This document shows, piece by piece, positions 14,790 through 43,108 of a DNA stretch of 64,000 bases (within the stretch, counting starts at the first letter, position 1; every line of letters starts with the position of its first letter). Position numbers and translations under genes: made by a program. The notes beneath the pieces are model-generated. The model was not told the origin of the DNA. It made no database searches and was given only the letters and a program-made list of their open reading frames with translations. The stretch lies in the NCBI GenBank assembly GCA_039196715.1, contig JBCCUP010000008.1, positions 5,488 to 69,487 of the forward strand. The letters run 5' to 3'. This DNA comes from Pseudomonadota bacterium. GTDB lineage: Bacteria > Pseudomonadota > Gammaproteobacteria > CALCKW01.

Positions 14790-15990
14790 TGTCGGGGTGG
14801 AGGGGCTGACTGACGCGCTTCTGATCCGTTACCGGATACAGACTGTGGGAGTGTATCTCCCGCCCCGTCTCGCTAACGCCAATGTGGAATCTAACGGCCA
14901 GAGCAAACCTGGACCGCCGATTAAGTGCAAGCTTGCGTCAACGAGCCCCCCGACAGGCACCCTAAACCTATCGGAGGACGCCGCTGTGCACAAGTCAGCA
15001 ACAGATCTGTTTATCGGGGTTGATGTGGCCAAACACGAGGTCGTTGTGGCGCGTTCCGATCAGTCAACGGTGCAACGCGTTGGCAACGAACTCGCAGCAC
15101 TTCAGGCTTGGATAGCTGACTTACCTGGACCGTGTGCTGTGCTGATGGAGTCGACCGGGCGATACCACCAGCTGCTCGCTGAGGCACTGCACGCGGCCGG
15201 GCACCGGGTGTACCTCGTCAACGGTCTCAAGCTCAGCCAGTACCGCAAGAGCGTCGGCCAACGTGCGAAGACCGATCCGAGTGACGCGAGGTTGTTGCTG
15301 CGCTACCTCCAGCACGAACACGCCGCGCTGACGCCGTGGCGGCCCACACCCGAAAACATCAGTGCCATCAGGACCTTGCTGAAGCGTCGCAGCGAGGTGA
15401 TCAAGCACACAGTGGCCCTGAGACAGTCATTCAGCGACGTGCCGCAGATCGACACCGCAGAGGTCATCGCCTCGCTCAAGGCGACAGTGGCCAAGCTGGA
15501 CCGGTTGATCAACGGCCTGATCGAGCACCAGGACATCAAAGACGAAGCGCGGCGTTGCCGACAGATCACCGGCGTGGGGCCCCTCACCAGCGCTGCACTG
15601 ACAGCAACCTACTACGCTGGCAACTTCACGCGGGTCGATGCGTTTATCGCGTTCATTGGACTGGATCTGATCGCGAACGACTCGGGGCGCAAGACAGGGC
15701 GGCGGCGCTTGAGCAAGAAGGGGGACTCGGAGGTCAGGCGTCTGTTGCACAACGCAGCGATGTCGGCGTGTCGTGTCGGCAAGTGGAAACAGTACTACGA
15801 GCGTTACCTGGCCCGTGGCTTCGAGCGCACCCAGGCCTTGGTGATCCTGGCGAGGAAGATCGCCAGGGTCGCGTTCAGCCTGCTGAAAACGGGCAGAGAC
15901 TACGACGAGGCACTGTTGTTCGGCTCAGCGTAGAAAACACACAGAAAACGCTTGCTACGCACCATAGAATCTCCCACAGCGGTGACCCGC
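14790..15990 (+). mobile_element. IS110-family insertion sequence (approximate boundaries), inserted within a REP-like repeat cluster
   Basis: It carries a single DEDD-type transposase gene. Flanking sequences contain inverted CTGTGGGAG (about 14858) and CTCCCACAG (about 15970) motifs. No classical terminal IRs are expected for IS110. Confidence 0.6.
14986..15933 (+). CDS. IS110 family transposase (DEDD N-terminal domain plus C-terminal Transposase_20-like domain)
   Basis: A GGAGGA RBS lies 7 nt upstream of the GTG at 14986. The N-terminus LFIGVDVAKHEVVVA carries the DEDD D, and the C-terminal half reads GVGPLTSAALTATYYAGNFTRVDAFIAFIGLDLIANDSGRKTGRRRLSKKG. An upstream in-frame extension to 14797 is possible. 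Confidence 0.85.
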   Translation: MHKSATDLFIGVDVAKHEVVVARSDQSTVQRVGNELAALQAWIADLPGPCAVLMESTGRYHQLLAEALHAAGHRVYLVNGLKLSQYRKSVGQRAKTDPSDARLLLRYLQHEHAALTPWRPTPENISAIRTLLKRRSEVIKHTVALRQSFSDVPQIDTAEVIASLKATVAKLDRLINGLIEHQDIKDEARRCRQITGVGPLTSAALTATYYAGNFTRVDAFIAFIGLDLIANDSGRKTGRRRLSKKGDSEVRRLLHNAAMSACRVGKWKQYYERYLARGFERTQALVILARKIARVAFSLLKTGRDYDEALLFGSA

Positions 15991-18158: not shown

Positions 18159-19199
18159 TTACCAGCTCAACACCACCTTGCCTGATCGCCCAGAGCGCAT
18201 CGCGTCGAAGGCCTCGGCGAAGTCGGTGGCGGCGTAGCGGTGGGTGATCACCCGGCTGACGTCCAGGCCGTTCTGCAGCATGGCAATCATCTTGTACCAG
18301 GTCTCGAACATCTCGCGGCCGTAGACACCTTTGATGGTGATGGCCTTGAACACGATGCGGCTCCAGTCAACCGGCGACTGGCCCGGCGGGATGCCGAGCA
18401 TCGCGATCTTGCCGCCCATGACGAGCGACTCGACCATCGCGTCAAGCGCCGCCTGGCTGCCGGACATCTCGAGGCCGACGTCGAAGCCCTCGGCGAGGCC
18501 AAGCCGAGCACAGACATCGGGCAACACCTCTCGACTGACATCGACCGTGTGCACCGAGGGCACCACGTGCTCAGCGAGCGCGAGACGGTCGGGGTTGAGG
18601 TCGGTGATGACCACATGGCGCGCGCCGGCGTACCGCGCCACCGCAGCTGCCATGATGCCGATCGGCCCCGCACCGGTGATCAGTACGTCCTCGCCGAGCA
18701 GGTCAAAACTCAACGCGGTGTGGACGGCGTTGCCGAGCGGGTCGAGGATCGCACCGATCTCGTCGGGGATGTCGTCGGGCAGCGGCACCACGTTGAATGC
18801 CGGCATGCAGAGGTACTGGGCAAAGGCACCTTGTACGTCGACACCGATCCCGCGCGTGCCCGGGTCGAGGTGGAACTTGCCGGCGCGCGCCTGGCGGCTG
18901 TCCCGGCCGATCAGGTGTCCTTCGCCCGAGCAGCGCTGGCCGACGCGCAGGCCCGTCACCGCGGCGCCACATTCGACGATTTCGCCGGCAAACTCGTGCC
19001 CGGTGATCAGCGGCACCGGCACGGTGTGCGCGGCCCAGTCGTCCCAGTTCCAGATGTGGATGTCGGTGCCGCAGATGCCGGTCGCGTTGACCTTGATCAG
19101 CACATCGTGCGGGCCGATGTCGGGCAGTGGTGCCTGGACTTGCCACAAGCCGGGTGCGGCGTGCGTCTTTTCGAGTGCGAGCATGCTGTTGCGGCTCAT
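18159..19199 (-). CDS. tdh: L-threonine 3-dehydrogenase
   Basis: Collinear identity to E. coli Tdh, including GICGTDIHIWNWDDWA, GHEFAGEIV and the C-terminal SGRSGKVVLSW. The start ATG at 19199 overlaps the kbl stop; an alternative start is the ATG at 19184. Confidence 0.92.
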   Translation of the reverse strand: MSRNSMLALEKTHAAPGLWQVQAPLPDIGPHDVLIKVNATGICGTDIHIWNWDDWAAHTVPVPLITGHEFAGEIVECGAAVTGLRVGQRCSGEGHLIGRDSRQARAGKFHLDPGTRGIGVDVQGAFAQYLCMPAFNVVPLPDDIPDEIGAILDPLGNAVHTALSFDLLGEDVLITGAGPIGIMAAAVARYAGARHVVITDLNPDRLALAEHVVPSVHTVDVSREVLPDVCARLGLAEGFDVGLEMSGSQAALDAMVESLVMGGKIAMLGIPPGQSPVDWSRIVFKAITIKGVYGREMFETWYKMIAMLQNGLDVSRVITHRYAATDFAEAFDAMRSGRSGKVVLSW

Positions 19200-20395
19200 G
19201 CGACCGCCCCCACTGCCCGGCCCGCCTCGACAAAGGCGTCGAGCGCCTGATCGAGGTCGGCCTCGCTCAGAGCGGCGGACATCTGCGTGCGGATGCGCGC
19301 CTGGCCGTGCGGCACAACCGGGTGGAAGAAGGCCGACACGAACACACCACGGGCGTCGAGCTCGGCCGCCATCTGCTGCGCCAGGGTGGCGTCACCGAGC
19401 ATCACGGGGACGATCGGGTGGTCGCCCGGCAACACGTCAAAGCCGTGCTCAACGAGGCCGCGGCGCCAGCGAGCCGCGTGCGCGTGCAGTTGCGCGCGGC
19501 GGTCGTCCGCCGAGGCGGCCAGCGCGACACCGGCGATGCCCGCCGCCGTGATGGCCGGCGGCAACGCGTTCGAGAACAGGTAGGGCCGCGCGCGTTGGCG
19601 CAAGGTGTCGATGACGGCGCCCGGCCCGGCGACATAGCCGCCGAGCGCGCCGCCAAGCGCCTTGCCGAGCGTGCCGGTCAGGATATCGGCTGCCACCCCA
19701 CAGTGGCTCGGCGTGCCCGCGCCGCGCGCACCGATGATGCCGGTCGCGTGGCAATCGTCCACCATCAACTGGGCGTCGTAGCGGTCGGCGAGCGCGCGCA
19801 CCGCAGCGAGCTCGGCGATCGTCCCGTCCATCGAAAACACCCCGTCGCTGGCGATGAGCACGTGCCGCGCGCCGTCCGCGCGCGCGCGCTTCAGAACATC
19901 CTCAAGCGCGTTCAGGTCGCCGTTCGCGTAGCGGTAGCGCGAAGCCTTGCACAGGCGGATGCCGTCGATGATCGAGGCGTGGTTGAGCGCATCCGAGACC
20001 ACGGCGTCTTCCGGCCCGAGCAGCGCTTCGAACAGTCCACCGTTGGCGTCGAAGCAGGCGGCGAAGAGAATCGCGTCGTCCTGATCCAGGTAGTCCGCCA
20101 GCGCGGCCTCGAGCGTGCGATGCAACGTCTGCGTGCCGCAGATGAAGCGCACTGAGGCCATCCCGTAGCCCGCGGTGTCGAGGGCTTCCCGCGCCGCGTC
20201 GATCAACGCGGGGTGGTCGGCGAGCCCGAGGTAGTTGTTCGAACAGAGGTTGATCCACTGCCTGTCCGGGGCGTGTCCGTCGAGCGTGACCCGCGCCGAC
20301 TGAGGCGACGAGAGTGCGCGTTCACGCTTGAGCAGGCCAGCCGATTCGAGCTCTGCCAAGGCGTCGTCGAGGTGCGCGAGGAACGCTGAAGCCAT
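19196..20395 (-). CDS. kbl: 2-amino-3-ketobutyrate coenzyme A ligase (glycine C-acetyltransferase)
   Basis: 399 aa in the alpha-oxoamine synthase family. The PLP-lysine region is TLGKALGG. It lies upstream of and overlaps tdh, the classic kbl-tdh operon arrangement. Confidence 0.92.
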   Translation of the reverse strand: MASAFLAHLDDALAELESAGLLKRERALSSPQSARVTLDGHAPDRQWINLCSNNYLGLADHPALIDAAREALDTAGYGMASVRFICGTQTLHRTLEAALADYLDQDDAILFAACFDANGGLFEALLGPEDAVVSDALNHASIIDGIRLCKASRYRYANGDLNALEDVLKRARADGARHVLIASDGVFSMDGTIAELAAVRALADRYDAQLMVDDCHATGIIGARGAGTPSHCGVAADILTGTLGKALGGALGGYVAGPGAVIDTLRQRARPYLFSNALPPAITAAGIAGVALAASADDRRAQLHAHAARWRRGLVEHGFDVLPGDHPIVPVMLGDATLAQQMAAELDARGVFVSAFFHPVVPHGQARIRTQMSAALSEADLDQALDAFVEAGRAVGAVA

Positions 20396-23505: not shown

Positions 23506-24873
23506 TCAGCGCGGCCAGTGCCGATGGTGCTCGTCGATGACAAAGGGGTGTGCGTGCCTGGTCGCGGCGTGGTGGTGCGGGTGCCGGTGCGGCTCCGGGC
23601 CCTCCCACCCCTCGTGCACATGCTGGTGGTGATCGTCATGGGTGTGCAGGTGATCGTGGTCCAGTGCGTCGTGACGGTGCAGCAGCGCGTCCGGGTCATC
23701 GCGCGGCCAAAGCCGCACAGCGAGCAACAAGGCCAGGCCCGAAATGGCCGCATGGAGCCAAAACCAGACATCGACGGGCAACACCGCGCCGAGAAATCCG
23801 GCACTGGCGTACGCCAGCAACCAGATGCCGTGAGAGAGTGAAAAATTGGTGGCAAACAGGGCGCTGCGGTCGCTGTCGTGACACGACGCAATGATGATTC
23901 GACCCGAGGGTGTCAGGATCAGAGAGCCACCGACACCCACGAGAAACCAGACGAACAGCACAGCGGTGTGGGAACGCGTTGCAACCCCGAGGCCCAGACC
24001 GAGCAGTGCGACCAGCGCGCCGGACAACATCACGGTGCGTGTGTCGGTGCGCCGCAACAGGCCCGGCACACTCCAGGCCGCCAGAACCGCACCAACGCCC
24101 GCAGCACCGGCCGTCAAGGGCACCCAGTGCTCGGGCAGTTCAAAGTACTCCCGCACCAACACGACCGTGTTGACAATGACCAGGGCGCCGCTGAAGGAGA
24201 CGACTGCGTGCAGCGCCAGCAAACCGCGCAACCGCGGCGTCCGGGTGTAGGCGCTGATGCCGAACAGCAGATTGTGCAGCACGCCGCCGGCACGCTCGCT
24301 GGCCGCTGCCGACGGTACCCGACTCCACCAGACGAGCGCGGCAGAGCCGATCAGCAACACCGCCGAGAGGGCATAGAGTCGCGTGTGGTCGGCGACAAAG
24401 AGCAGCCCCGCGGCGAGCAGCGGACCCGCCATGCCCTCCAACTCCTGAGCAAGCCGAGACCAGCTCAGCGCCTTCACGTACTGCTCGTCGTCGAGGAGAT
24501 CGGGAATCGCAGCCTGGTATACCGGCGTGAACGCAGCCGAAAACATGTAGAACACCGCAACCAGCAGCACAAACGCAACACTGGAACCGACCACAGCCAA
24601 CCACAGCAACAGGCCCGCGCGGGCCAGATCGAGGGTGACAAGCCAATTGCGCCGCGGCAGGCGGTCGATGTACGCACCGACCACCGGCGCAACCGTGACG
24701 TAGACGAGCATCTTGCCGATCAGCGCGGTCGCGAGTAACGCGCCCGCTGCGTCAGGTCGAAAGGCGTGCGCGCTCAGGGCGAGCGCGACAACAACAAGGC
24801 CGTTGGCCACGAGTGAGAGCAACTGCGCAGCAAAGAGTCGCGCGAAGGCCCGGTTTTCGAGTGGTGAGGTCAT
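23506..24873 (-). CDS. MFS transporter with a histidine-rich C-terminal cytoplasmic tail
   Basis: 12-TM MFS core with start MTSPLENRAFARLF. The C-terminus reads HDALDHDHLHTHDDHHQHVHEGWEGPEPHRHPHHHAATRHAHPFVIDEHHRHW. It lies downstream of the riboswitch-cobW unit. The ORF-track extension to 25239 was rejected. Confidence 0.75.
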   Translation of the reverse strand: MTSPLENRAFARLFAAQLLSLVANGLVVVALALSAHAFRPDAAGALLATALIGKMLVYVTVAPVVGAYIDRLPRRNWLVTLDLARAGLLLWLAVVGSSVAFVLLVAVFYMFSAAFTPVYQAAIPDLLDDEQYVKALSWSRLAQELEGMAGPLLAAGLLFVADHTRLYALSAVLLIGSAALVWWSRVPSAAASERAGGVLHNLLFGISAYTRTPRLRGLLALHAVVSFSGALVIVNTVVLVREYFELPEHWVPLTAGAAGVGAVLAAWSVPGLLRRTDTRTVMLSGALVALLGLGLGVATRSHTAVLFVWFLVGVGGSLILTPSGRIIIASCHDSDRSALFATNFSLSHGIWLLAYASAGFLGAVLPVDVWFWLHAAISGLALLLAVRLWPRDDPDALLHRHDALDHDHLHTHDDHHQHVHEGWEGPEPHRHPHHHAATRHAHPFVIDEHHRHWPR

Positions 24874-25024
24874 CGCTTGGCACGCCCACTGGCGATCTGG
24901 ACTACCGGCATTCTGCGGCCACCGGCTGTGCCGCAGCAAGCACACGTGGCATGACCGCCTGAACGCTGTTGCCACCGGAGCGCGCGGCCCGGATTCAGCA
25001 GCGCGCGCCGACCCGCGAACGGGG

Positions 25025-26085
25025 TCAGGCCACCGGCCGAGTCTCGAAGTGGGTCTCCAGGCGCGTCTGGTCAAGATGAAAGCCGATACACACCAGGCGC
25101 GTGCGACGCGCCTCATCATCGCGCCAACGCCGATCGAAATGGGTGTCGAAGCGCGCACCGACCCCCTGCACCAGCAAGCGCATCGGCTTGTCAGGTACGG
25201 CGGCGTGGCCCTTGATCCGGAAGACCGTCTCCGCCCCAACGAGAGCGTCCAGGCCGGCCTGCAGCGCCTCGGGTGTCATCGGCGGCAGGTCGAGTACCAC
25301 GTGGCTGAACACGTCGTGCGCGTGGTGGTGGTCTTCGTCGTGGTCGTGGTGGTGGTCGTGGTGGGTGTGGATGTGGTCGATCGCGTCCTCGGCCGCCGCG
25401 CCCACACCGAGCAGCACACTCGGCGAAACAGCGCATTGCGCAGTCGGCAACAGCTTGACCTCGCGCGGCAGACGCGCGGTGATTGCCTCCGAGACGCTCG
25501 CCAGGGTGTCGTCCGACATCAGGTCGGTCTTGTTGACCAGCACGAGATCGGCCGCGCTGAGCTGGTCGTCGAACAACTCGACCAGCTCCGGTGTGTGGTC
25601 GAGGCTGTCGTCGGCGAGCCGCTGCGCCTGCACCGCGTCCGGGTCGTCGGCAAACCGACCGGCGGCCACCGCCGGCCCATCGACCACCGTGATCACCGCA
25701 TCGACCGTGCAGGCTGTGCGGATTTCCGGCCAGGCGAAGGCCTGCACCAGCGGCTTTGGCAGGGCGAGCCCCGAGGTTTCGATCAGGATGTGGTCGATCT
25801 GGTCACGGCGTTCGATCAACTGCTCGAGCACCGGATGGAACTCCTCCTGTACGGTGCAGCAGATGCAGCCGTTGGCGAGTTCGTAGATGCCGGGGCCGGA
25901 CTCGGTTTCGTCCTCGCACCCGATCGAACACTGGCGGACCAACTCGGTGTCGACGTCCATCGCGCCGAATTCGTTGACGATCACAGCGACCCGCAACCCT
26001 TCGGTGTTTTTCAACACGTTCTGGACCAGGGTGGTCTTGCCGCTGCCGAGAAAGCCGGTGACAACGGTGGCGGGCAACTTTTTCA
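25025..26085 (-). CDS. cobW: COG0523 GTPase metallochaperone, CobW-like (cobalamin biosynthesis cobalt chaperone)
   Basis: P-loop GFLGSGKTTL, metal-binding GCICCT, His-rich stretch HIHTHHDHHHDHDEDHHHAHD and a C-terminal CobW_C domain. The start ATG is at 26083-26085. Confidence 0.85.
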
Positions 26086-26508
26086 TGCGGGTGACTCGTC
26101 GAAGGGGGGCATTCGGGCGATGAAGTGGCCCTTGATGGCGGCAGGCCACTGTTTGTACGGTACGCGCCCGCTTTCGGACTGCGTGTAGAGCGCAGCGTAC
26201 GCAGCGAGCGCATCGGCCGACTCGGCCGACGGCTCAAAGCGTCCAATGACATAGCTGTATTTTGAGGGATCACACAAGTGCACATTGCAGGCGTGATCGC
26301 AGGCCATCAGGCACTGGACCGGACGTAACGACACATCGGAGTCGGCGAAGGCCGCCTGAAGCCGTTGCAGAAAGTGCTCGCCGCCACTCAGCCCGTCGGG
26401 CGCATTGGCCGCGCGATCCCGGTTGCAGGTGGTGCAGACGTGGAGCACGGCGGCGGAGGTGGATGACGCGGTCTCGTCCGCGCGTGCGGCAGTCGGTGTT
26501 CGGTCCAA
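26083..26508 (-). CDS. DUF1636 metal-binding protein (thioredoxin-like [2Fe-2S]-ferredoxin fold), commonly linked to cobW
   Basis: Cys/His motifs HVCTTCNRD and CLMACDHACNVHLC. The TTG start at 26506-26508 is preceded by GGGGAG. Its stop overlaps the cobW start (ATGA). The ORF-track N-terminal extension overlaps the riboswitch and was rejected. Confidence 0.65.
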   Translation of the reverse strand: MDRTPTAARADETASSTSAAVLHVCTTCNRDRAANAPDGLSGGEHFLQRLQAAFADSDVSLRPVQCLMACDHACNVHLCDPSKYSYVIGRFEPSAESADALAAYAALYTQSESGRVPYKQWPAAIKGHFIARMPPFDESPA

Positions 26509-26534
26509 AGTGAGCTCCCCGCTCGTCGGAACGT

Positions 26535-26725
26535 CATGCGACGGCAGGTCTCCTGGCTCCGGGTCACCGTGTGACGCGCCTTCCCGGTCCGGCGGGGTGC
26601 CGAGACCAGTGGCGTGTGCGGCACACTCCACCGTTACAGTTGCGGGGGCAGCTCGGGCATGTCACCCGATTCCCTTTTTTACACCTGCGACCCAGGTGGG
26701 TGGCAGGTGACCGATCGCTGGCGCC
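26535..26725 (-). promoter_or_regulatory. cobalamin (AdoCbl) riboswitch, RF00174-like
   Basis: The minus-strand sequence contains the canonical blocks in order: GGTCGCAGGTGTAAAAAAGGGAATCGGGTGA ... CCCCGCAACTGTAACGG ... GCCACTGG ... CGGGAAGGC ... GAGCCAGGAGACCTGCC (the B12 box). It sits directly upstream of DUF1636-cobW. Confidence 0.85.
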
Positions 26726-26811
26726 GAGTGTACCAGCAATCCCCGCCACACTCGCGTCGATTGCGACACCGGCCGCGCCGCGCACGACCCTCGAAGGACC
26801 CGCAAACGCGC

Positions 26812-28035
26812 CTAGGGTAACTCGCGCGCGAGCCGCACCAGGTGGCTCATGAGCCGCAGGAACGGCAAAGTCACCATGCCGGCCTCGTTGTTCCAGGTGC
26901 CGACCACGCAGGCCGTGCGCCCCGCGGTGTCCTCGAGCAGGAAGCTCTGGTTGATCACACCGGGCTCGGACCCACCCTTGTAGGCCACGCGGGCCCAGCG
27001 CGACGGGTCGAGGTGTCCGGGGTTCTGCACCACGGCGGGCGCGAACCCGACGGCACGCAGCGCAGCGCAGAGCTCACGCGCGCTCAAGAACCATTCGACG
27101 TCGAGCGCGACCGGGCCGGCATCGAACACCGAGAGCGGTGGCAACGGTCTCGACGCGAGTGCGTCGAGCACGCCCCGACGGGCAGCCGTGTCACCCACCC
27201 GCCACTGGGCCAACAGGTCGGCGTTGCGCGGGTCCTTGAGCCGGAAGACCGCGCCGGTGTCGAGAAACGGCGTGTTCCTTGGTGAGAGCGCTTCGAGCGC
27301 GTCGCGTCCCAGCGCGTCGATCAGCACATCGGTCGCGGTGTTGTCGCTCAATCGGATCATGTCTTCTGCCAGTGTGGCGATGCGGTGCGCCGAGCCGACC
27401 GGCGCGTCCTGCAAGCGGCCGCTCGGCAACGAGACGTGTTGCTGCGCAAGCGAGAGGCTCGCGTCGGCGGGGAGCCGGCCCGTGGCCTGCTGTTGCTGCA
27501 AGGCGCGCAGCACCAGCAGTTTGAACGCCGAGCCGACCGCAAGCGGCGTGTCGGCGTCGCGGGCAAACAGCAGCTCGCCATCGCGCTCGACGAGCAGGCT
27601 CACGGTGCCGCCAAACTCGGGCAGGACCTGTTCGATGTCCGCACGCGTTGGCGGGGTGCGCGGCTCGGTCAGGTTGAACCAGAGCGTGGTGAAGCCGCCC
27701 TCGGCGTCGAGCCGCGCAAACACCGGCACGACCGCCTCGTCGAAGTCGAGCAACCAGAAGGCCTCGTCCTCGCGCACGCCGCGTAACGCGCCGTGCGCCT
27801 CGAGGGTGTCGTCGCGGATGCCGGCCACACTGTCGGCAAACCCGGTGCCGCGGATCGCCGGTGTGAAGAACCCCTCGCGCACCTCGGCCGCGTTGAACAA
27901 CCGGGTCAACGCGGCGGGCACCGCGTCCGGTGCGGACGCCGGCGGCGATGGCGGTGCCGCACAGACTGCGAGTGCCGTGGCCAGCGCCAGCAGCCACGTG
28001 AGCCAGGCACCTCGAGCGAACCCGGTCCGCGTCAA
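26812..28035 (-). CDS. beta-lactamase-fold serine hydrolase (class A-like motifs), predicted lipoprotein or secreted
   Basis: Signal/lipobox-like N-terminus LLALATALAVCAAP. Motifs SAFK (SxxK), SDN and KGG (KTG-like). About 190 extra N-terminal residues precede the hydrolase domain. Its TTG start overlaps the cobO stop (TTGA). Confidence 0.65.
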   Translation of the reverse strand: MTRTGFARGAWLTWLLALATALAVCAAPPSPPASAPDAVPAALTRLFNAAEVREGFFTPAIRGTGFADSVAGIRDDTLEAHGALRGVREDEAFWLLDFDEAVVPVFARLDAEGGFTTLWFNLTEPRTPPTRADIEQVLPEFGGTVSLLVERDGELLFARDADTPLAVGSAFKLLVLRALQQQQATGRLPADASLSLAQQHVSLPSGRLQDAPVGSAHRIATLAEDMIRLSDNTATDVLIDALGRDALEALSPRNTPFLDTGAVFRLKDPRNADLLAQWRVGDTAARRGVLDALASRPLPPLSVFDAGPVALDVEWFLSARELCAALRAVGFAPAVVQNPGHLDPSRWARVAYKGGSEPGVINQSFLLEDTAGRTACVVGTWNNEAGMVTLPFLRLMSHLVRLARELP

Positions 28036-28634
28036 AATTCAACCCCGGCCTGCGCCTTGACCCCTTGTTCCTTGTAAGGGTGCTTGACCGCCCGGATTTC
28101 GTTGACCATGTCGGCGGCCTCGACCAGCCGGTCGGGCGCGTTGCGTCCGGTGATGACCACGTGCTGCATGGCCGGGCGGGCGGCGAGCGCCGCGAGCACA
28201 GCGTCGAGGTCAACGTACTCGTACTTCAGCGCCCAGTTCAGTTCGTCGAGCACCACGAGGCCGATCGCGTCATCGCCGAGCAGGCGCTCGGCCACCGACC
28301 AGGCGTGGGCTGCCGACGCCATGTCCTTGTCGCGGTCCTGGGTCTTCCAGGTAAACCCGTCGCCGAGGGTGTGGAACTCGACCTGCTCGTAGGCGTCGAG
28401 CAGGTCGCGTTCGGCTGTCGCCATGGCGCCCTTGATGAACTGCACCACGCCCACACCCATGCCGTGGCCGATGGCACGCAGCGCCATACCGAAGGCCGCG
28501 GTCGACTTGCCCTTGCCCGTGCCGGTGTTGACTATCACCAGGCCCTTCTCGGTGGTGGCCTTGGCCTGCTTCTTTTCGTACCCCGCGTTGCGTTTCTCTG
28601 CAAAGCGCTGGTGTTTTGCCTGGTCGTCGTCCAC
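28035..28634 (-). CDS. cobO: cob(I)yrinic acid a,c-diamide adenosyltransferase (corrinoid adenosyltransferase, CobO/BtuR type)
   Basis: Collinear with Pseudomonas CobO: GLVIVNTGTGKGKSTAAFGMALRAIGHGMGVGVVQFIKG...VVLDELNWALKYEY...VVITGRNA...IRAVKHPYKEQGVKAQAGVEF. A GTG start follows a GAGGGGG RBS. Confidence 0.9.
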
Positions 28635-28740
28635 GGGTTCCCCCTCACTCGGTGTTGGCTGTGCGTGCGGCCTGACTATACCGCAGCGATTCTCTGCACA
28701 CGCGCATGGAGTGGCGCACGGCATTGCTGCAAAATACCGC

Positions 28741-35453: not shown

Positions 35454-36531
35454 TTATAGGTCAGCAGACGCATTTGCGCCGAGCGCATCCCAGGCTTGTA
35501 AAAACAGGGCATCGGCGCCGGCCCCCTTGCTGCAGACCCGGATGTGGCCTGGCAGGCCGAACGAGGCAGCACTGCGCACCTGGACGCGGCACTGCTGCAG
35601 CATGCGAAGCCGGTAGGCGCTCGCCCCAGGGCAACGCACCAGGGCGAAGTGGCAGTCGCTCGGCACCACCTCGGCACGGCGTGCCCGCAACGCCGTCCAG
35701 AGCTGTTCGGCGCTCTGCCGCACCGCACGGATGGCAGCGTCCGTCGCCACCACCACCTCGGGATCGAGCGCGGCGATGCCGGCAGCCATGGCCGGGGCCG
35801 ACACCGACCAGGGCGGCAGCACACGGTGCACCGCCTGGGCATCGTCAAGCTGCGCGACGGCGTAACCGAGTCGCAAGCCTGCGAGCGCGTAGTCCTTGGT
35901 GAGCGAGTAGAGGTTGATCGCGGCAGGGACCTCGTCAAAGCGCGATGTGGGGTCGGCGAAGGTTGCGTACGCGTGGTCGACGACCAGGCGACCGCCCGTT
36001 TCGGCGCAGACCGCCGCGAGCCGCGCCAGCTGCGCGCGCGGCCAGAGCCGGCCTGTGGGGTTGTTCGGCTGGCACACGAACACCAGCGCCGGGCGCTCCC
36101 GCTCGACGTTGGCAAAAACCTCGGTCAGATCCGGCTCCGCGCCGAGCGGGACCGACACTTCGAGTGGGCGGCGGCGCAGGGCCTGCGCGGCGTCGAGGTA
36201 CTCGCCAAAACTCGGCTGCACGGCAAGGACGGTATCGCCTTCGCGGGTGACGGCCTGCACGGCAGCAAAGATGAGCTGTGCCGCACCCGCGCCGGCGACC
36301 ACCTGCGCCGCTGGCACACCGTGGCAGGCGGCCAGCCGCGCACGCAAGGGCGCCGCGTCAGGCGAGGGGTAGGTCTCGATGGCCGCACGCTCGGCGGCGC
36401 GACGCACGCGCGCATGGGCGCGACCGGGGAGGCAGTTGCTGCTCATGTCCAGCACGCGTTCCGCATCGACACCGAGCGCCTCGAGCTCGGTCGTGTTCAG
36501 CGCGCCGTGCCGCTCACTCACGTCAGTGACC
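35454..36531 (-). CDS. cobD: L-threonine-O-3-phosphate decarboxylase (CobD of Salmonella / CobC of Pseudomonas); class II aminotransferase fold
   Basis: Histidinol-phosphate-aminotransferase-like PLP enzyme, with NPTG and the PLP-lysine region YSLTKDYALAGLRLGY. It overlaps the cbiB stop by 14 bp. A GTG start is inferred. Confidence 0.75.
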
Positions 36532-37435
36532 CGAGTGCGGCACAGGCGAGGCAGACGAGCCAGAAGCCGACACCGCGCGTGACCAGGTCGCAAGCCCGGC
36601 CGATGTCGCGCGCGGTCGGATCGCGCCCGTCACCGAGGCGCGGCCGGCTTTTGAGCTCACCGCCGTATTCGGCGTCTCCACCGAGGGCGAGACCAAGTGC
36701 ACCGGCCCCGCTCGCCATGACCGCACCGGCGTTGCCGCTGTACCAGCGGTGTGAACGCCACGCACGCCAGGCCGATCGGCTCGAGCCGAGGACCGTGTAG
36801 GTCATCGCCGTCAGCCGCGCGGGCACCCAGTTGAGCACATCGTCTAACCGGGCCGCCGCCCAGCCGAAGTGTGCGTAACGGGCATTGCGGTACCCCCACA
36901 TGGCGTCCAGGGTGTTGCTGGCCCGGTAGACCACGGCACCGATCGGGCCGAACACCGCCGCCCAGAACAGCGCGGCAAACACCGCGTCGGCCCCGTTCTC
37001 GAGCACTGATTCAACGGTGGCCCGGCTCACGGCCGTGGCATCGAGCTCGCGCGTGTCGCGCGACACGATGTGCGACAGCGCACCGCGGGCCGCGTTGAGG
37101 TCGCCCTCTTCAAGCGGCTGTGACACGGCTGTCGCGTGCTCAACCAGACTCCTGCCGCCGAGGGCGAGCGCCAGCACCAGCACCCCGAGCAGGAGGTCGG
37201 GCAGCACGAGATCGAGCAGCAACACCGGACAGATCGCCACCAGCAGCACGGCCAACACCGCCACGACCCCGGCCCGCCGCTGGGACGTCGCCGATTCGGC
37301 GCCGTCGCACAAGCGCTCCTCCACCCGCGTCGCCAGGTTGCCGAGCCAGACCAGCGGGTGCCAGCGCAGAGGTGGCTCTCCGAACAGGCGATCGGCCACC
37401 ACGGCGAAAAGAGCAACGGCGAAGACGGTGACCAC
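36518..37435 (-). CDS. cbiB: adenosylcobinamide-phosphate synthase (CbiB; CobD in the Pseudomonas nomenclature)
   Basis: Membrane protein with the N-terminus AVVADRLFGEPPLRWHPLVWLG typical of CbiB. Only the C-terminal ~306 aa of the 531-aa ORF-track frame are homologous, so the upstream extension was rejected. Confidence 0.8.
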   Translation of the reverse strand: MVTVFAVALFAVVADRLFGEPPLRWHPLVWLGNLATRVEERLCDGAESATSQRRAGVVAVLAVLLVAICPVLLLDLVLPDLLLGVLVLALALGGRSLVEHATAVSQPLEEGDLNAARGALSHIVSRDTRELDATAVSRATVESVLENGADAVFAALFWAAVFGPIGAVVYRASNTLDAMWGYRNARYAHFGWAAARLDDVLNWVPARLTAMTYTVLGSSRSAWRAWRSHRWYSGNAGAVMASGAGALGLALGGDAEYGGELKSRPRLGDGRDPTARDIGRACDLVTRGVGFWLVCLACAALGSLT

Positions 37436-37543
37436 GTCGCGTGAACCATCCCAAAACACGCAGTATACCGATCGACCTTTCACGGGCGGGTGTGCGTTGC
37501 GTCGGTTTCTGCCCCGCCTGCGTCCAGCCGATACAATACCGCA

Positions 37544-38854
37544 ATGCCACCCGGACTCATCGTCGCCGCGCCGCACTCGGACGCCGGCAAGACCACCGTG
37601 ACGCTCGCGCTGCTGCGCGCGCTGCGCCGTCGTGCCCGGGTGGGTGCCTTCAAATGCGGACCGGACTACATCGACCCCCGCTTTCATGCCCACGCGTCCG
37701 GCCAGTCCTGTTACAACCTCGACCCCTGGACCCAGTCCGATGCGAGTCTGGCCGAGATCATCGCCTACCACCAGGGTCAGGACCTGCTGCTCGCCGAGGG
37801 GGTAATGGGCCTGTTCGACGGCGCGCCTGACGGCCGCGGCAGCACCGCCGAGCTCGCGCGCCGCACCGGCTGGCCGGTCGTGCTGGTGGTCGATTGCAAG
37901 GGCATGGCAGATTCGATTGCCGCCCTGGTCAGCGGATTTGTCGACTTCGACCGCTCGCTGACCGTGGCCGGCGTGGTGCTCAACCGGGTCGGGTCCGACG
38001 CCCACACCGAGCGACTGCGCGAGGCCCTGGCGCCGTTGCGTGTGCCCGTGCTTGGCGCCCTGCCCCGTCTTCAGACACTCGCGCTGCCGAAACGCCACCT
38101 GGGCCTGCTGCAAGCAGACGAGTTACCCGGGCTCGACCGATTGCTCGATGCGGCCGCCGACACCCTGAGCGCGCACCTCAGCCTCGAGACGACCGTCGCT
38201 GCCGCCGCCCGCGGACACCTGACAGTGGACGCCGATCACTGCCCCTGGGTGCCGGCACTCGGCGACGCTGTGGCCGTCGCGCGCGACCACGCATTCGCGT
38301 TCTGCTACCCCCACTGGCTGCGCCGGTGGCAGGACCGCGGCGTGACCGTGATGCCGTTTTCACCGCTTGCTGACGAGGCTCCCGACCCCTCGGCAACTGG
38401 CGTTTTTCTGCCCGGCGGCTACCCTGAACTGCACGCCGGGACACTTGCCAAGGCCCGGCGTTTCCACCAGGCTCTGTACCAATTCGCCAAGCGTGGCACG
38501 CCGATCTACGGCGAGTGCGGGGGGTTCATGGCGCTCGGCCACACCCTCATCGACGCCGAGTCCCGACCGCACCGGATGGCCGGGTTGCTCGACATCGACA
38601 CAAGTTTCGCCGACCGCCGATTGCAGCTCGGCTACCGCCGTGTCCAACTCGCGGCACCGACGCCGCTCGGCTCAGCCCCCTTGGGTGCCCACGAATTCCA
38701 CTACAGCCAGCGCGTAGCGAGTCGGCAAGCCGCAGCCACGGCCGAGATCGTCGACGCCCGCGGTCAGCGACACGACAACACCTGGTTCGCGTCCGGCAGC
38801 GTGTCCGGCAGCTACCTGCACGCCATTGACGCGTTTGCGCAGCTCCAAACATGA
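37544..38854 (+). CDS. cobB: cobyrinic acid (hydrogenobyrinic acid) a,c-diamide synthase
   Basis: P-loop N-terminus GLIVAAPHSDAGKTTVTLALLRAL. The C-terminal GATase domain has YGECGGFMALG. 436 aa. Confidence 0.88.
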   Translation: MPPGLIVAAPHSDAGKTTVTLALLRALRRRARVGAFKCGPDYIDPRFHAHASGQSCYNLDPWTQSDASLAEIIAYHQGQDLLLAEGVMGLFDGAPDGRGSTAELARRTGWPVVLVVDCKGMADSIAALVSGFVDFDRSLTVAGVVLNRVGSDAHTERLREALAPLRVPVLGALPRLQTLALPKRHLGLLQADELPGLDRLLDAAADTLSAHLSLETTVAAAARGHLTVDADHCPWVPALGDAVAVARDHAFAFCYPHWLRRWQDRGVTVMPFSPLADEAPDPSATGVFLPGGYPELHAGTLAKARRFHQALYQFAKRGTPIYGECGGFMALGHTLIDAESRPHRMAGLLDIDTSFADRRLQLGYRRVQLAAPTPLGSAPLGAHEFHYSQRVASRQAAATAEIVDARGQRHDNTWFASGSVSGSYLHAIDAFAQLQT

Positions 38855-38938
38855 AAACCCTGACACCAGGCAAGGTCTGATCCGGCTGTCACGGGTGTGG
38901 TAGTCTGCGGCGCTGACGGCACGCTTCAGGAGTCCACC

Positions 38939-39487
38939 ATGGCCAAGCAGTTTCCGGCGATCGACGCCAAGCACCGGGAATTCATCGAAGCGCAGCAGAT
39001 GTTCTTCGTCGCCACCGCGGCAGAGGCCGGCCGCGTCAACCTGTCACCGAAGGGCAAGGACGCGTTTCGCGTGCTCGACGCCAACCGCATCCTGTGGCTC
39101 AACCTGACCGGCAGCGGCAACGAGACCGCCGCACACCTCAAACAGAATCCGCGAATGACGGTCATGTTCTGCGCCTTCGAGGGCGCGCCGATGATCCTGC
39201 GGTTGTACGGCACGGCGCGCACGGTGCACGAATGGGACGCGGACTGGGAGACCCTCTATGGCCACTTCGACCCGGCAACCGGCGCCCGCCAGGTCTACGA
39301 CATGGCGGTCGATCTGGTGCAGACCAGTTGCGGCTTCGCCGTGCCGGCGTACGCCTACGAAGGGCAGCGCGACATCCTCGACACCTGGGCCGACAAGCGC
39401 GGCAAGGACGGCGTGCGCACCTACTGGCGCGAGCGCAACGGCCTGTCGATCGACGGGTTCGAGACCGGCACCGCGCGCGACACGTAG
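38939..39487 (+). CDS. pyridoxamine 5'-phosphate oxidase family protein (FMN-binding split barrel)
   Basis: An AGGAG RBS precedes ATG 38939. The sequence EFIEAQQMFFVATAAEAGRVNLSPKG is typical of the PNPOx-like fold. Confidence 0.65.
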   Translation: MAKQFPAIDAKHREFIEAQQMFFVATAAEAGRVNLSPKGKDAFRVLDANRILWLNLTGSGNETAAHLKQNPRMTVMFCAFEGAPMILRLYGTARTVHEWDADWETLYGHFDPATGARQVYDMAVDLVQTSCGFAVPAYAYEGQRDILDTWADKRGKDGVRTYWRERNGLSIDGFETGTARDT

Positions 39488-40314
39488 TCGGCGAGCGCCG
39501 CTGCATACTGACCGGTGCCGGGCACCGTTTGCTCGCGCCAGGCGCAGTAGCACGCGAAGCGAAAATCGTAGGCGGCCTGGGTGTCGATCCAGGTGGCGTC
39601 CAACGTGACCCCGGCGGCAGCGAGAAAGCGCGCGGCCTCCCAAAGCGGCGCGGGCGGGAATCCGTAGGCCAGGCGCATGCCGCGCGCGAGGTAGCAGGCG
39701 AGGTCTTCGTGCGGGTTGCCAAGCGCGACACACTGCCAATCAACCAACACCGCCGCGTCGCCACCCACCCAATTGCCCGGATGCGGGTCGCGGTGGATCA
39801 CCGTGCATGCGTGAGGCCGGGCACCCACCTCGGGCGCGCTGGCCCGCAGCGCAGCGACCGCCTCGTTGTCGGTGGCGACCCGATCGAGCATATCCAGACC
39901 CTGCTCGACCCACGCCCGCGGCGTGCCGGCCACGACGGACAGCCCGGTCCACGGCGACAGGTCGTGCACCGCGCGAAGCTGCTGTGCCGCCCGCTCGGGC
40001 GCGTGGAAACGGCCACCCGCCACGCAAGGCCAAACCGACCAATCACCCCAGGCGCCAAGCAAGCGCGGCGCGAGTGACGTCGGCGTTGCCTCGGCGGCGG
40101 CACGCTCAACCGCGGCGTCGTTGCCGAACAGCGGGTTGCGCACCGCATCGGCCTGGTGGTGTTTGACGATACAATCTCGCGCGCCAGGCGCAGACGCGCG
40201 CCAGACGCGGTTGCTGTGCGCGCCCGCCACGCTCACCAGCTGCCAGGACGCGCCCGCGGGCGCGAGCTTCAGGTGCTCCAGCAGGGCGACGGCGGTGAAA
40301 TCAGGTTCGGCCAT
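39421..40314 (-). CDS. aminoglycoside-phosphotransferase (APH/choline-kinase) family kinase; candidate BluE-like L-threonine kinase of cobalamin nucleotide-loop assembly
   Basis: Catalytic loop VIHRDPHPGNWV and LVDWQCVALGNPHEDLA (Brenner HxDxxxxN plus DxxxD). It sits between cobB and cbiD. The 785-aa ORF-track frame is mostly a spurious upstream extension. Confidence 0.6.
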   Translation of the reverse strand: MAEPDFTAVALLEHLKLAPAGASWQLVSVAGAHSNRVWRASAPGARDCIVKHHQADAVRNPLFGNDAAVERAAAEATPTSLAPRLLGAWGDWSVWPCVAGGRFHAPERAAQQLRAVHDLSPWTGLSVVAGTPRAWVEQGLDMLDRVATDNEAVAALRASAPEVGARPHACTVIHRDPHPGNWVGGDAAVLVDWQCVALGNPHEDLACYLARGMRLAYGFPPAPLWEAARFLAAAGVTLDATWIDTQAAYDFRFACYCAWREQTVPGTGQYAAALADYVSRAVPVSNPSIDRPLRSRQ

Positions 40315-41418
40315 ATGACTCACAGTTCCGAGCAAACGGGCTCGCAGCCGGCGCAACCGCTCCGACGGGGGTGGACCACCGGCGCGTGCGCCACGGCGGC
40401 CTGCCACGCGGCGTGCCTGGGGCTGCTTCGCGGCGCGCTCCCGGAGACAGTCCGCATCACGTTGCCGCGCGGCGAACAACCCGAGTTCGCGGTCGTCCGT
40501 GGCGAGCTCAGTGCGTATTCTGCCACTGCTACGGTCGAAAAGGATGCCGGAGATGACCCCGATGTGACACACGGGGCCTTGATCAGCGTCCGCCTGAGCC
40601 GAAATACCCTCGGCAGCGTCCGTTTTTTTGCCGGCACAGGGGTCGGCACAGTGACCCTGCCCGGCCTGCCGATCGCTGTCGGCGAGCCCGCGATCAACCC
40701 GGTGCCGCGGCAGATGATGACCGACACGTTGACGGGCCTCAGCGCGGCGCACGGCGTGACCACCGGCTGGGACGTCACGGTCTCTGTCGCGGACGGCGAG
40801 CGGCTCGCGGCCCAGACCTGGAACGGTCGGCTCGGCATTGTCGGCGGCCTGTCGATCCTCGGCACCACCGGTATCGTGCGGCCCTACTCCTGCGCCGCCT
40901 GGATCCACTCGATCCACCGCGGCGTCGACGTCGCGCGGGCGCGCGGGCGCTTGCACGTCGGGGCCTGCACCGGCGCCACGTCCGAGCGTGTGGTGCGCGA
41001 GCGCTACGGTCTGGACGAGACCGACATGCTCGACATGGGCGATTTTGTCGGCCCGCTGCTGAAGTACCTGCGCCAACACCCTGTGGCCCGCCTCACGCTG
41101 GGCGGCGGTTTCGGCAAGTTCTGCAAGCTCGCCCACGGGCACACCGACCTGCACTCCAAACGGTCGCAGGTCGATTTCAGTTGGCTTAGTCGGCAAGTCG
41201 AGCAGCTGTCGAGTGACACAGCCCTGGTGACGCGTTGCCGCCAGGCCAACAGCGCGCTCGACGTGCTCAACCTCTGCGTCGAGGCCGGTGTGCCGATCGC
41301 GTCGCGGATTGCCGAGGGCGCACTGCGCACCGGTGTGGCGCAGCTGCCGGACGACACCCGTGTCGACGTGCTGGTGTGCTCGCGCGACGGCCGGTTGCTG
41401 GCGAGCGCCCACACGTGA
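40315..41418 (+). CDS. cbiD: cobalt-precorrin-5B (C1)-methyltransferase CbiD family
   Basis: Signature N-terminus LRRGWTTGACATAAC. 367 aa. Confidence 0.8.
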   Translation: MTHSSEQTGSQPAQPLRRGWTTGACATAACHAACLGLLRGALPETVRITLPRGEQPEFAVVRGELSAYSATATVEKDAGDDPDVTHGALISVRLSRNTLGSVRFFAGTGVGTVTLPGLPIAVGEPAINPVPRQMMTDTLTGLSAAHGVTTGWDVTVSVADGERLAAQTWNGRLGIVGGLSILGTTGIVRPYSCAAWIHSIHRGVDVARARGRLHVGACTGATSERVVRERYGLDETDMLDMGDFVGPLLKYLRQHPVARLTLGGGFGKFCKLAHGHTDLHSKRSQVDFSWLSRQVEQLSSDTALVTRCRQANSALDVLNLCVEAGVPIASRIAEGALRTGVAQLPDDTRVDVLVCSRDGRLLASAHT

Positions 41419-42101
41419 CCGTGCTGGTGATCGGGGGCACGGCCCGCGCGCGGACGCTCGCCTCGCGCCTGGCCCGCTCCCAGACGGTGATCTACGCCCT
41501 GGCGGGCGTGACCCGCAACCCGCGGTTGCCCGCGGGCTGCGAGATCCGCCAGGGCCCGTTTGGTGGCGTCGAGGGCTTGTGTCGCTTTCTAAAGTCCGCG
41601 GGCGTACGCCAGATCGTCGACGGCAGCCACCCCCACGCAACTGGAATCTCGGCCAACGCGCAGGCAGCAGCTGCCCGGCACGGCATCCCCTGTGCCCGCC
41701 TGCGCTGGCGGCCGTGGCGGCCCGATCACGGTGACCGCTGGCGACAGTTTGGTGACCCGCGTGCGCTGGTCGCGGCACTTGCCGCTCGCGCGCCCAGCCG
41801 CGTGCTGCTCACGCTCGGGGCCCGCGCCTCGACCCCGGTGATTGCGGTGGCAGGGCACCGGTTCTGGTTGCGCAGTATCGAGGCGCCCGACACCGCCGCC
41901 GCCGCGTCACCGGTCGACGTGATTCGCGCGCGGGGCCCCTTCGACGAGGCCGATGAACACGCGTTGCTCCAACGCCTCGGCATCGACCTGCTGGTGTGCA
42001 AGAACAGTGGGTTGCGCGAAGGACGTGCCAAACTCACAGCAGCACGCGCGCTCGGCATCGAGGTGTGGTTGTTGCAGGCCACTCCGTCAGTGGCCCGGTG
42101 A
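41415..42101 (+). CDS. cobK: precorrin-6A / cobalt-precorrin-6A reductase
   Basis: The GTG start overlaps the cbiD stop (GTGA). The N-terminus VLVIGGTARARTLASRL is typical of CobK/CbiJ. 228 aa. Confidence 0.75.
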   Translation: MTVLVIGGTARARTLASRLARSQTVIYALAGVTRNPRLPAGCEIRQGPFGGVEGLCRFLKSAGVRQIVDGSHPHATGISANAQAAAARHGIPCARLRWRPWRPDHGDRWRQFGDPRALVAALAARAPSRVLLTLGARASTPVIAVAGHRFWLRSIEAPDTAAAASPVDVIRARGPFDEADEHALLQRLGIDLLVCKNSGLREGRAKLTAARALGIEVWLLQATPSVAR

Positions 42102-42223
42102 CGCCGGGACCACCTTGGGAGACACCGCACGGTGAACCGAAGCCAGCGGGTGCCGCGCTGTGCTCCCGGGTGGCAATCCTGTCTCGGGGCCGTTCCCTTT
42201 CCGCGTGACCGACGAGGCCGTCG

Positions 42224-43108
42224 ATGGACATTCTGACTGACAACCCCGCCGCGCTGGTCGCTGCGGCTATCCGGGCGCTGAGCGTGGGGGTTGCGCTGCT
42301 CGCCGCCGGGACGGTTCTGGTCAACACCCTGTGGATGGACGCCGATGCGATGCGCGCGTCGGGCAGCCCCCGCACCGCGTTGTCGGCCAGTGTGGTCGCG
42401 GTCGTGGCGCTGCTGGTCGACTGGGTGAACACGGCCCGCCTGCTGTACGGCGACGCCGGCAGCGCAGTCGATCCGCTGATCATCCAGAGCGCCCTCGACA
42501 CCCCGCTGGGTCAGTTCTACGCGGTGGCGCTCGCCGGCCTGGCCTGGCTGTTCTTCGCGACAATCGGTGCCCGCACACTGCCCTACCTCGCGGTCCCGGG
42601 CGCGCTGGCGGTGATCGCGAGTGTCGGTCTGGTCGGGCACACCCTGGATGAACCGCGCGCGCTGCTCTATGCGCTGCTGACGCTTCACATCGGCTTCGCC
42701 GCCATGTGGATGGGCGTGCTGATGCCCTTGTCGCGGTTGACTCGCCAGCCGCGCAACCGCGGCTACGCGGCCGACCTCGCCGAGGACCTCGGTCGCGGGG
42801 GTTTCGTGCTGCTGCCCAGCATCGCGCTCGCGGCGGGCTACCTCGGCTGGCTGTTACTCGGCCAACCCACCAGCGTGCCCACCCACGCCTACGCGCAACT
42901 GATGCTGGTCAAGGTCCTGTTGTTTCTGGCGCTGGTCGCCGTCGGAGCATTCAACCGATTCGTGATCGTGCCGCGCTTGCATGACAGCCTCGGTGCCGGG
43001 GCCTGGCTGCGCGTTACCATCGCACTCGAGGCGCTGCTGTTCGCCGCCATCCTGCTGGCCGTCGCCGTGACAACCGACAACGTCCACCCACGCCCTTTGC
43101 CCGGCTGA
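42224..43108 (+). CDS. CopD-family membrane protein (copper-resistance-D-like 8-TM domain)
   Basis: 294 aa and polytopic, with the conserved His-containing helices GHTLDEP and HIGFAAMWMG. It lies 120 bp downstream of cobK. Confidence 0.6.
   Translation: MDILTDNPAALVAAAIRALSVGVALLAAGTVLVNTLWMDADAMRASGSPRTALSASVVAVVALLVDWVNTARLLYGDAGSAVDPLIIQSALDTPLGQFYAVALAGLAWLFFATIGARTLPYLAVPGALAVIASVGLVGHTLDEPRALLYALLTLHIGFAAMWMGVLMPLSRLTRQPRNRGYAADLAEDLGRGGFVLLPSIALAAGYLGWLLLGQPTSVPTHAYAQLMLVKVLLFLALVAVGAFNRFVIVPRLHDSLGAGAWLRVTIALEALLFAAILLAVAVTTDNVHPRPLPG

Follow-up and report, generated by a model that had tools for sequence, protein, structure and literature searches.

An APH/choline-kinase-fold kinase gene lying antisense among cobalamin genes: a tentative candidate for the L-threonine kinase step of B12 linker synthesis

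We analysed a stretch of 64,000 nucleotides (nt) of contig JBCCUP010000008.1 (assembly GCA_039196715.1, Pseudomonadota bacterium, Gammaproteobacteria, CALCKW01), hereafter the window, in which a kinase gene lies on the minus strand among genes for cobalamin (vitamin B12) synthesis. The gene codes for a genuine and intact small-molecule kinase of the APH/choline-kinase fold, a member of a tiny, uncharacterised subfamily. On the grounds of its neighbourhood, we put forward the tentative hypothesis that this kinase is the source of the L-threonine phosphate used by the adjacent CobD-type enzyme and, after decarboxylation, by CbiB. About equally likely, in our estimate, is that it is a passenger whose substrate has nothing to do with B12. 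The substrate, and any B12 link at all, are what we infer here. The kinase gene and its landmarks are listed below, all on the minus strand; residue conservation refers to a family alignment of 57 sequences.

39421-40314, minus strand: APH/choline-kinase-fold kinase gene, 298 codons including the stop, 297 amino acids
40162-40164, minus strand: Lys51 in IVKHH, presumed ATP-phosphate-binding lysine, nearly invariant
39772-39795, minus strand: catalytic loop HRDPHPGN, residues 174-181, with H174, D176 and N181 invariant
39700-39741, minus strand: whole segment from DWQ through GNPHEDL
39733-39741, minus strand: metal-binding DWQ, residues 192-194, with D192, W193 and Q194 invariant
39700-39717, minus strand: NPHEDL within GNPHEDL, a choline-kinase-type motif, with G199 and D204 invariant
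39673-39684, minus strand: RGMR, residues 211-214, with subfamily-specific arginines in place of P211 and Q214 of the relatives not linked to cob genes

The protein matches the Pfam APH profile PF01636 with 44.1 bits (gathering cut-off 23.2; E 2.8e-11), and no NCBIfam model above its cut-off. Its AlphaFold2 model, with a predicted local distance difference test (pLDDT) value of 92 and a predicted TM-score (pTM) of 0.89, shows the bilobal eukaryotic-like kinase fold, and the features that mark the superfamily, namely the HxDxxxxN loop, the metal-binding aspartate (D192) and the N-lobe lysine (K51), are all present. The original prediction of an APH-family kinase carrying HRDPHPGN, DWQ and NPHEDL is therefore borne out, motif coordinates included, while the 298 amino acids that it gave for the protein come to 297 plus the stop codon. 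Comparison with solved structures returned a choline/ethanolamine-kinase family protein (3dxq, 19.4), APH(2'')-IIIa (3tdv, 19.3), a Plasmodium choline kinase (6yxs, 19.1), the Agrobacterium type II homoserine kinase (2ppq, 18.7), the LicA choline kinase (4r77, 18.6), an ethanolamine kinase (2qg7, 18.4) and the microcompartment aminopropanol kinase (6ef6, 17.2), with identities of 10-20% throughout. The fold is certain, and the substrate is not settled by these matches. Given the fold and the intact catalytic residues, the best explanation is a gene product predicted to be catalytically competent.

The genes that surround the kinase gene in the window are the following.

35454-36530, minus strand: CobD/CobC-type pyridoxal phosphate-dependent (PLP) enzyme, presumed L-threonine-O-3-phosphate decarboxylase; best NCBIfam model TIGR01140, 212 bits, below the cut-off of 290
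36518-37465, minus strand: cbiB/cobD, adenosylcobinamide-phosphate synthase; TIGR00380, 220 bits, cut-off 166
37541-38854, plus strand: cobB/cbiA, cobyrinic acid a,c-diamide synthase; NF002204, 475 bits, cut-off 254
38939-39487, plus strand: PNPOx-like flavin mononucleotide (FMN)-binding protein of 182 amino acids; Pfam PF01243; 84 nt downstream of cbiA
40315-41418, plus strand: cbiD, cobalt-precorrin-5B C1-methyltransferase; NF000849, 466 bits, cut-off 348
41415-42101, plus strand: cbiJ/cobK, precorrin-6A reductase; 4-nt overlap with cbiD
42224-43108, plus strand: CopD-like gene

The CobD/CobC-type gene and cbiB overlap by 13 nt, and the kinase gene lies about 2 kb from cbiB, with cbiA and the PNPOx-like gene between them. 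A setting among cob genes, with cobD in the window, is thus as originally described; these genes include those for a CobD-type threonine-phosphate decarboxylase and CbiB. As to the more precise placement between cobB and cbiD, the cbiD flank holds; the other immediate neighbour is the PNPOx-like gene, to which, as to cbiD, the kinase gene is antisense, and cobB/cbiA stands one gene further off.

A word-index search over 5.8 billion cluster representatives recovered five close sequences, that is, the window protein and four others at 57-65% identity. When 1.84 billion representatives at 50% identity were searched exhaustively with a profile, one representative of the subfamily was found, and the next matches followed at E 1e-35 and at most about 35% identity. 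Out of about 15 billion proteins, five clusters at 90% identity make up the subfamily, and a single uncultured proteobacterial lineage accounts for all of them; the metagenome contigs scanned with the subfamily alignment yielded no relative. All five members occupy one and the same place among cobD, cbiB, cbiA, cbiD and cbiJ. Specifically, the four homologues (loci L001, L003, L007 and L008) have in common an order in which (CopD, CopC), CbiJ and CbiD are followed divergently by the kinase, which converges with the PNPOx-like gene and CbiA, these being in turn divergent from CbiB, CobD and CitMHS. Between members, the kinase and the flanking cob enzymes have diverged at similar rates, which speaks for the kinase as part of this neighbourhood. 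CopC, encoded between cbiJ and CopD in L001, L007 and L008, is missing from the window (no tblastn match), where a mere 122 nt (42101-42224) separate cbiJ from the CopD-like gene.

The gene order in the nearest outgroup CbiD loci (59-60% identity) is different. In L098 (a contig of GCA_024449705.1, 491-8771) cbiA is divergent from a single block, cbiB-cobD-cbiD-cbiJ, and in L099 (3536-8843) it is divergent from cbiD-cbiJ. Since the outgroup block is contiguous, a lineage-specific rearrangement, by inversion or insertion, appears to have split it, the junction being filled by the PNPOx-like gene and the kinase gene. This placement is compatible with functional recruitment and with neutral insertion alike.

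Both ends of the kinase gene touch or overlap a neighbour.

40312-40317: CATATG, in which the kinase ATG (complement of 40312-40314) touches the cbiD ATG (40315-40317)
39421-39487: convergent overlap between the 3' ends of the kinase and PNPOx-like genes, 67 nt

The two start codons are 0 nt apart in the window, L001, L003 and L007, and 2 nt apart (CATATATG) in L008. The N-termini are conserved at both starts (MAEPDFTA-like in the kinase, MT...LRRGWTTGACATAA in CbiD), no alternative start codon occurs between the CbiD methionine and the conserved LRRGW motif, and the NCBIfam CbiD models align from CbiD residue 10. For these reasons a mis-assigned start, offered in the original prediction as an alternative to the divergent ATGs that it correctly saw touching in CATATG, is unlikely. 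The overlap, which it also reported, at 66 bp, measures 67 nt in L001, L003 and L008 as in the window, and 88 nt in L007. Recurring in the four other subfamily members, both junctions appear to be more than the product of chance.

As far as expression signals are concerned, a Shine-Dalgarno-like sequence is absent before the kinase ATG in every one of the five loci, and the one such signal before cbiD is a weak AGG/GGA/GGG at -13 to -11, made by codons 3-4 of the kinase. The consensus scan of positions 38700-40900 found no sigma-70-type promoter, and no plus-strand terminator was found between the PNPOx-like gene and cbiD. The promoters, like the weak ribosome-binding site of cbiD, would then have to lie inside the neighbouring coding sequences. 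We also considered leaderless mRNAs, and dropped the idea because none of the five loci has a TANNNT -10 box suitably spaced for it. It is possible that read-through from cbiA and the PNPOx-like gene crosses the antisense kinase gene into cbiD, and the transcript of the kinase gene is probably antisense to cbiD, to this read-through, or to both.

The convergent overlap bears on how the C-terminus of the kinase is to be read. Its last 20 or so residues (about 278-297; ...PVSxPSIDxxxRSRQ) are nearly invariant within the subfamily, are missing from about 88-90% of the outgroup relatives and are predicted to be disordered (pLDDT 41-55, compared to 92 for the whole protein). The PNPOx-like family is very large, with at least 8000 matches at E<1e-10 and 60-67% identity across Gammaproteobacteria, Alphaproteobacteria, Acidobacteriota and Fibrobacterota, and has no named function. 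Its C-terminal YW.E.N..S.DG..TG is invariant even where there is neither an overlapping kinase nor a cob context, for example in Cellvibrio (L091), in which the gene is not linked to cob genes, and in Sedimenticola (L093), in which it is divergent from NikR-CbiMQO. Within the overlap the third codon positions of both genes coincide, so that most of the kinase tail is dictated by the conserved PNPOx residues. Because the third codon positions are shared, their guanine-cytosine content (GC3) is of no help in telling the strands apart. With amino-acid identities of about 60%, synonymous sites are saturated. The best reading of the tail is that it is an overprinted run-on into the PNPOx-like gene and not a functional motif, its apparent conservation being an artefact of the antisense gene; it ends where an antisense stop arises at the codon of the invariant PNPOx Tyr162. 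The overlap also contains the palindrome TCGATCGA (39445-39452), which encodes Ser-Ile-Asp on both strands (...LSIDGF... in the PNPOx-like protein, ...PSIDRP... in the kinase). The PNPOx-like protein might conceivably serve here as a flavin-dependent corrin reductase, analogous to CobR.

The pathway that we propose for the kinase would run in three steps. The kinase would convert L-threonine to L-threonine-O-3-phosphate, the CobD-type enzyme would decarboxylate this to aminopropanol phosphate, and CbiB would join the latter to adenosylcobyric acid. In this reading the kinase would take the place of the GHMP-type PduX and BluE by non-orthologous replacement, without being a relative of BluE, and would come from a lineage-specific subfamily wedged antisense between the co-directional pairs cbiA-PNPOx and cbiD-cbiJ. 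At the threonine-kinase step the pathway has a genuine gap: most verified cobamide producers lack pduX, which was for that reason left out of the predictions by Shelton et al. (PMC6461909). In favour of the threonine-kinase role are the conserved position among cob genes, a remodelled substrate site, and the lack of a PduX- or BluE-like gene in the window and the related contigs, in which cobU/P, cobS, cobT, cobQ, cobN and bluB were not found either.

The remodelling consists of substitutions fixed in the subfamily with respect to the outgroup (G175R, V178H, I182W, D200N, P211R, A212G, Q214R, H250D and W251F), which cluster at the catalytic loop and in the segment on the substrate side, their placement being taken from motif position and not from coordinates. 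A pattern of this kind is compatible with a substrate change, and the arginines that were gained would suit an anionic compound, for instance an amino acid. The role is also supported by the structural precedents of APH-fold homoserine, aminopropanol and choline kinases, and by the subfamily-specific arginines near the substrate site. As the structural matches show, L-homoserine and 1-amino-2-propanol, chemically the nearest analogues of the two candidate substrates, are already phosphorylated by enzymes of this fold.

Several observations weigh against this role. The kinase gene lies on the strand opposite to that of its immediate neighbours, which rules out co-transcription with them. Synteny among the five loci extends over more than 15 kb, CitMHS and CopCD included, so that they are not independent and count as roughly one observation; the outgroup cob clusters L098 and L099 have neither a clustered kinase nor a PNPOx-like gene. 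Unrelated genes, namely those for an M24 peptidase, a CitMHS/DASS transporter, a beta-lactamase-like protein and CopD, stand among the cob genes of the window. Fold searches cannot separate the candidate substrates. Finally, the nearest relatives of the kinase are found beside fliK-flgD or ubiB-ubiE, and never linked to cob genes.

This last point derives from a scan of genome contigs with the alignment of the wider family, which gave at least 579 loci, almost all of them in Rhodobacterales. The scan pattern, [IV]DWQCP[AG]xG, leaves out the subfamily itself (VDWQCVALG), so that the counts cover the wider family. In the best 80 loci, which we examined (L009-L088), the relatives are 27-36% identical to the window kinase, and CbiB, CobD, CbiA, CbiD, CbiJ, CobW or CysG was found within 10 kb in none. 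Instead, 59 of the 80 genes directly follow flgD, usually with fliK just upstream, and in 38 a ubiB-type ABC1 kinase gene is convergent to the relative; P0006, at 35% identity the closest sequence of the outgroup, is likewise convergent to ubiB-ubiE. The Rhodobacterales relatives match the thiamine kinase model TIGR02721 weakly (62 bits, cut-off 299), and the window kinase does not match it at E<=0.01. That a thiamine-kinase-like gene should close a flagellar hook operon in these loci is a conserved and unexplained placement in its own right. Because none of the 80 loci lies near cob genes, we conclude that the wider family is not a B12 family, and that cob linkage is limited to the five-member subfamily.

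These data lend weight to the passenger explanation, according to which a kinase for an unrelated substrate (for example an amino alcohol, a vitamin or a sugar) came to lie at a rearrangement breakpoint, having arrived in company with the PNPOx-like gene, or beside it, in a loosely organised cob neighbourhood, and was kept by descent. The flagellar and ubiB linkage of the relatives and the weak thiamine-kinase match of the outgroup agree with this, as do a PNPOx-like partner drawn from a huge family without general cob linkage, the contiguous cbiB-cobD-cbiD-cbiJ of the outgroup, which puts both genes at an inversion or insertion junction, and the further non-cob genes interspersed in the region. 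What a passenger would leave unaccounted for is the extremely tight packing on both sides, retained across 57-65% divergence, the remodelling of the substrate region with respect to non-cob relatives, and a subfamily known from the cob setting only. We regard this explanation, like the threonine-kinase role, as a serious possibility that falls short of being probable.

A second linker substrate also comes into view. The best sequence-profile match of the kinase among the solved structures in the PDB is the LicA choline kinase (4r77, E 5e-10). As an (R)-1-amino-2-propanol kinase, the enzyme would make aminopropanol phosphate for CbiB from free aminopropanol, obtained from threonine via Tdh and aminoacetone, and would bypass or supplement CobD. 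The window holds a gene pair for the corresponding route.

18159-19199, minus strand: tdh, L-threonine 3-dehydrogenase; 510 bits, cut-off 380
19196-20395, minus strand: kbl, glycine C-acetyltransferase, overlapping tdh; 572 bits, cut-off 460

This pair (18159-20395), a route to aminoacetone and from there to aminopropanol, is however 20 kb away from the kinase gene and probably a common housekeeping pair; moreover, the CobD-type decarboxylase gene next to cbiB implies a threonine phosphate intermediate, and the PDB profile search gave no significant sequence match to the known aminopropanol kinase structure (6ef6), which is missing from its 60 listed matches. We consider this alternative improbable.

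The same cob neighbourhood, and the lack of cobU/cobP in the window, could point instead to a salvage kinase that phosphorylates cobinamide or another corrinoid or lower-ligand intermediate in the manner of CobU/CobP. Nevertheless, cobU/cobP is probably located elsewhere in the genome, like cobS, cobT and cobQ, which the window lacks as well, and we know of no precedent for APH-fold corrinoid kinases. Such a function seems to us very improbable.

The original prediction had named best homologs among aminoglycoside or macrolide phosphotransferases, with a resistance context, as the outcome that would speak against it. The top Foldseek matches do include APH(3') enzymes, and a weak NCBIfam match to APH(9)-Ib was obtained. 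This is the best of the resistance models, and its 25.5 bits compare to a cut-off of 675; in addition, no resistance enzyme is more than about 20% identical to the kinase, tblastn against 72,556 plasmids gave no match, and the gene holds a conserved chromosomal position with no adjacent mobile element and no resistance context. A resistance phosphotransferase is thus hardly credible. An IS110-family transposase gene (DEDD_Tnp_IS110 and Transposase_20; 14797-15933, plus strand) lies 24 kb from the kinase gene, and no other mobile-element gene was seen among the open reading frames scanned in the window.

The remaining cob genes of the window are scattered: a riboswitch-cobW unit, cobO and cysG occur apart from the group formed by cobD-cbiB, cbiA and cbiD-cbiJ. 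The features at the first two of these sites are as follows.

26526-26731, minus strand: cobalamin riboswitch, Rfam RF00174, 113.8 bits, upstream of cobW and then the MFS transporter gene
25025-26149, minus strand: cobW
23506-25239, minus strand: MFS transporter
28035-28640, minus strand: cobO, adenosyltransferase, above cut-off
26812-28035, minus strand: uncharacterised 407-amino-acid protein directly after cobO, with Beta-lactamase2 as its sole Pfam match and no NCBIfam match

The riboswitch, cobW and the transporter may form a B12-repressed unit for the delivery or uptake of a metal, perhaps cobalt.

Beyond this locus, the kinase that makes L-threonine phosphate for the aminopropanol linker of B12 is unidentified in most cobamide producers. 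It is conceivable, though on the unlikely side, that the subfamily stands for a new class of cobamide-linker kinase, an APH-fold L-threonine (or aminopropanol) kinase that came from an unrelated family of small-molecule kinases and was recruited into a cob cluster, independently of PduX, BluE and the archaeal bifunctional CobD. In view of the 0-nt spacing to the cbiD start, the 67-nt overlap with the PNPOx-like gene and the antisense embedding, its expression could moreover be coupled to that of corrin-ring genes by overlapping antisense transcription. If confirmed biochemically, such an enzyme would be a new and unrelated solution to the threonine/aminopropanol kinase step, and would provide both a new search model with which to look into this gap and, for the engineering of the B12 pathway, a new part. 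The subfamily is tiny and belongs to one lineage, and the interest is real but bounded.

The comparison with known systems starts from BluE, since the original prediction called the kinase BluE-type and took BluE for an APH-fold enzyme. A 2024 paper describes PduX, BluE and DabA as sharing the GHMP motifs I-III and a fourth, threonine-kinase-specific motif (PMC10906522), and Fang et al. 2018 call bluE a homologue of pduX (PMC6249242). We examined the proteins encoded at the BluE position in annotated Rhodobacterales replicons, which are about 263 amino acids long. In Alloyangia pacifica a histidine phosphatase, a 264-amino-acid 'propanediol utilization protein', cbiB and cobD follow in order; in Paracoccus sanguinis a protein of the same family is encoded immediately upstream of cbiB, and in Gemmobacter aquarius one comes after bluB. 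These proteins match GHMP_kinases_N weakly (E 0.003-0.004) around a PPGGGAGMSTA motif, do not match Pfam APH, and have termini resembling MRPALHI... and ...IRGGGR, as encoded by the primers for the codon-optimised Rhodobacter bluE (RcBluE). Their assignment as BluE is by proxy, from gene order, annotation and matching termini, and the GHMP call is based on the weak Pfam match, annotation and literature.

On this evidence we are highly confident that BluE is GHMP-like and not APH-fold, which corrects the premise of the original prediction. BLASTP of the window kinase against the Alloyangia protein gave E 0.6, that is, no similarity; the kinase matches no GHMP family at E<=0.01, and a profile of the BluE-like proteins found no match among the PDB sequences. 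The wider Rhodobacterales APH family, a candidate for BluE by taxonomy, was discarded as well, because none of its 80 loci is cob-linked within 10 kb and 59 lie behind fliK-flgD. With a shared cob context as the one point in its favour, and the GHMP-like character of BluE, the lack of similarity and the position of the APH-family relatives outside cob operons opposed to it, homology of the kinase to Rhodobacterales BluE is effectively refuted.

Among the enzymes that have the fold, the Mycobacterium smegmatis 1-amino-2-propanol kinase (6ef6) is 12% identical to the window kinase and reportedly (Mallette and Kimber, 2018) a catabolic microcompartment enzyme. With the Agrobacterium type II homoserine kinase (2ppq, 12% identity) the similarity is limited to the fold, and the NCBIfam models for alternative homoserine kinases do not match the window kinase at E<=0.01. 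The choline and ethanolamine kinases (LicA 4r77, 3dxq and the Plasmodium enzymes) have the Brenner-type HxDxxxxN loop and the choline-kinase-type D-x-E/Q...D motif in common with it; they differ in that identity is only 10-17%, that the window kinase lacks a lic or phospholipid context, and that it carries arginines in its substrate segment.

BluE is said to be the L-threonine kinase of Rhodobacter and Cereibacter (Tavares et al., 2018). The window kinase resembles it in that its gene lies among the late cob genes, by those for CbiB and the threonine-phosphate decarboxylase, and in the reaction proposed. In contrast, the genes at the BluE position are co-transcribed immediately upstream of cbiB, whereas that of the APH-fold window kinase is antisense and does not stand directly upstream of, and co-oriented with, cbiB-cobD. 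PduX of Salmonella enterica is reportedly a GHMP-family L-threonine kinase (Fan and Bobik, 2008). From this enzyme the window kinase differs in its fold and in a gene location outside a pdu operon, while the reaction that we propose for it, and the role in the pathway, would be the same.

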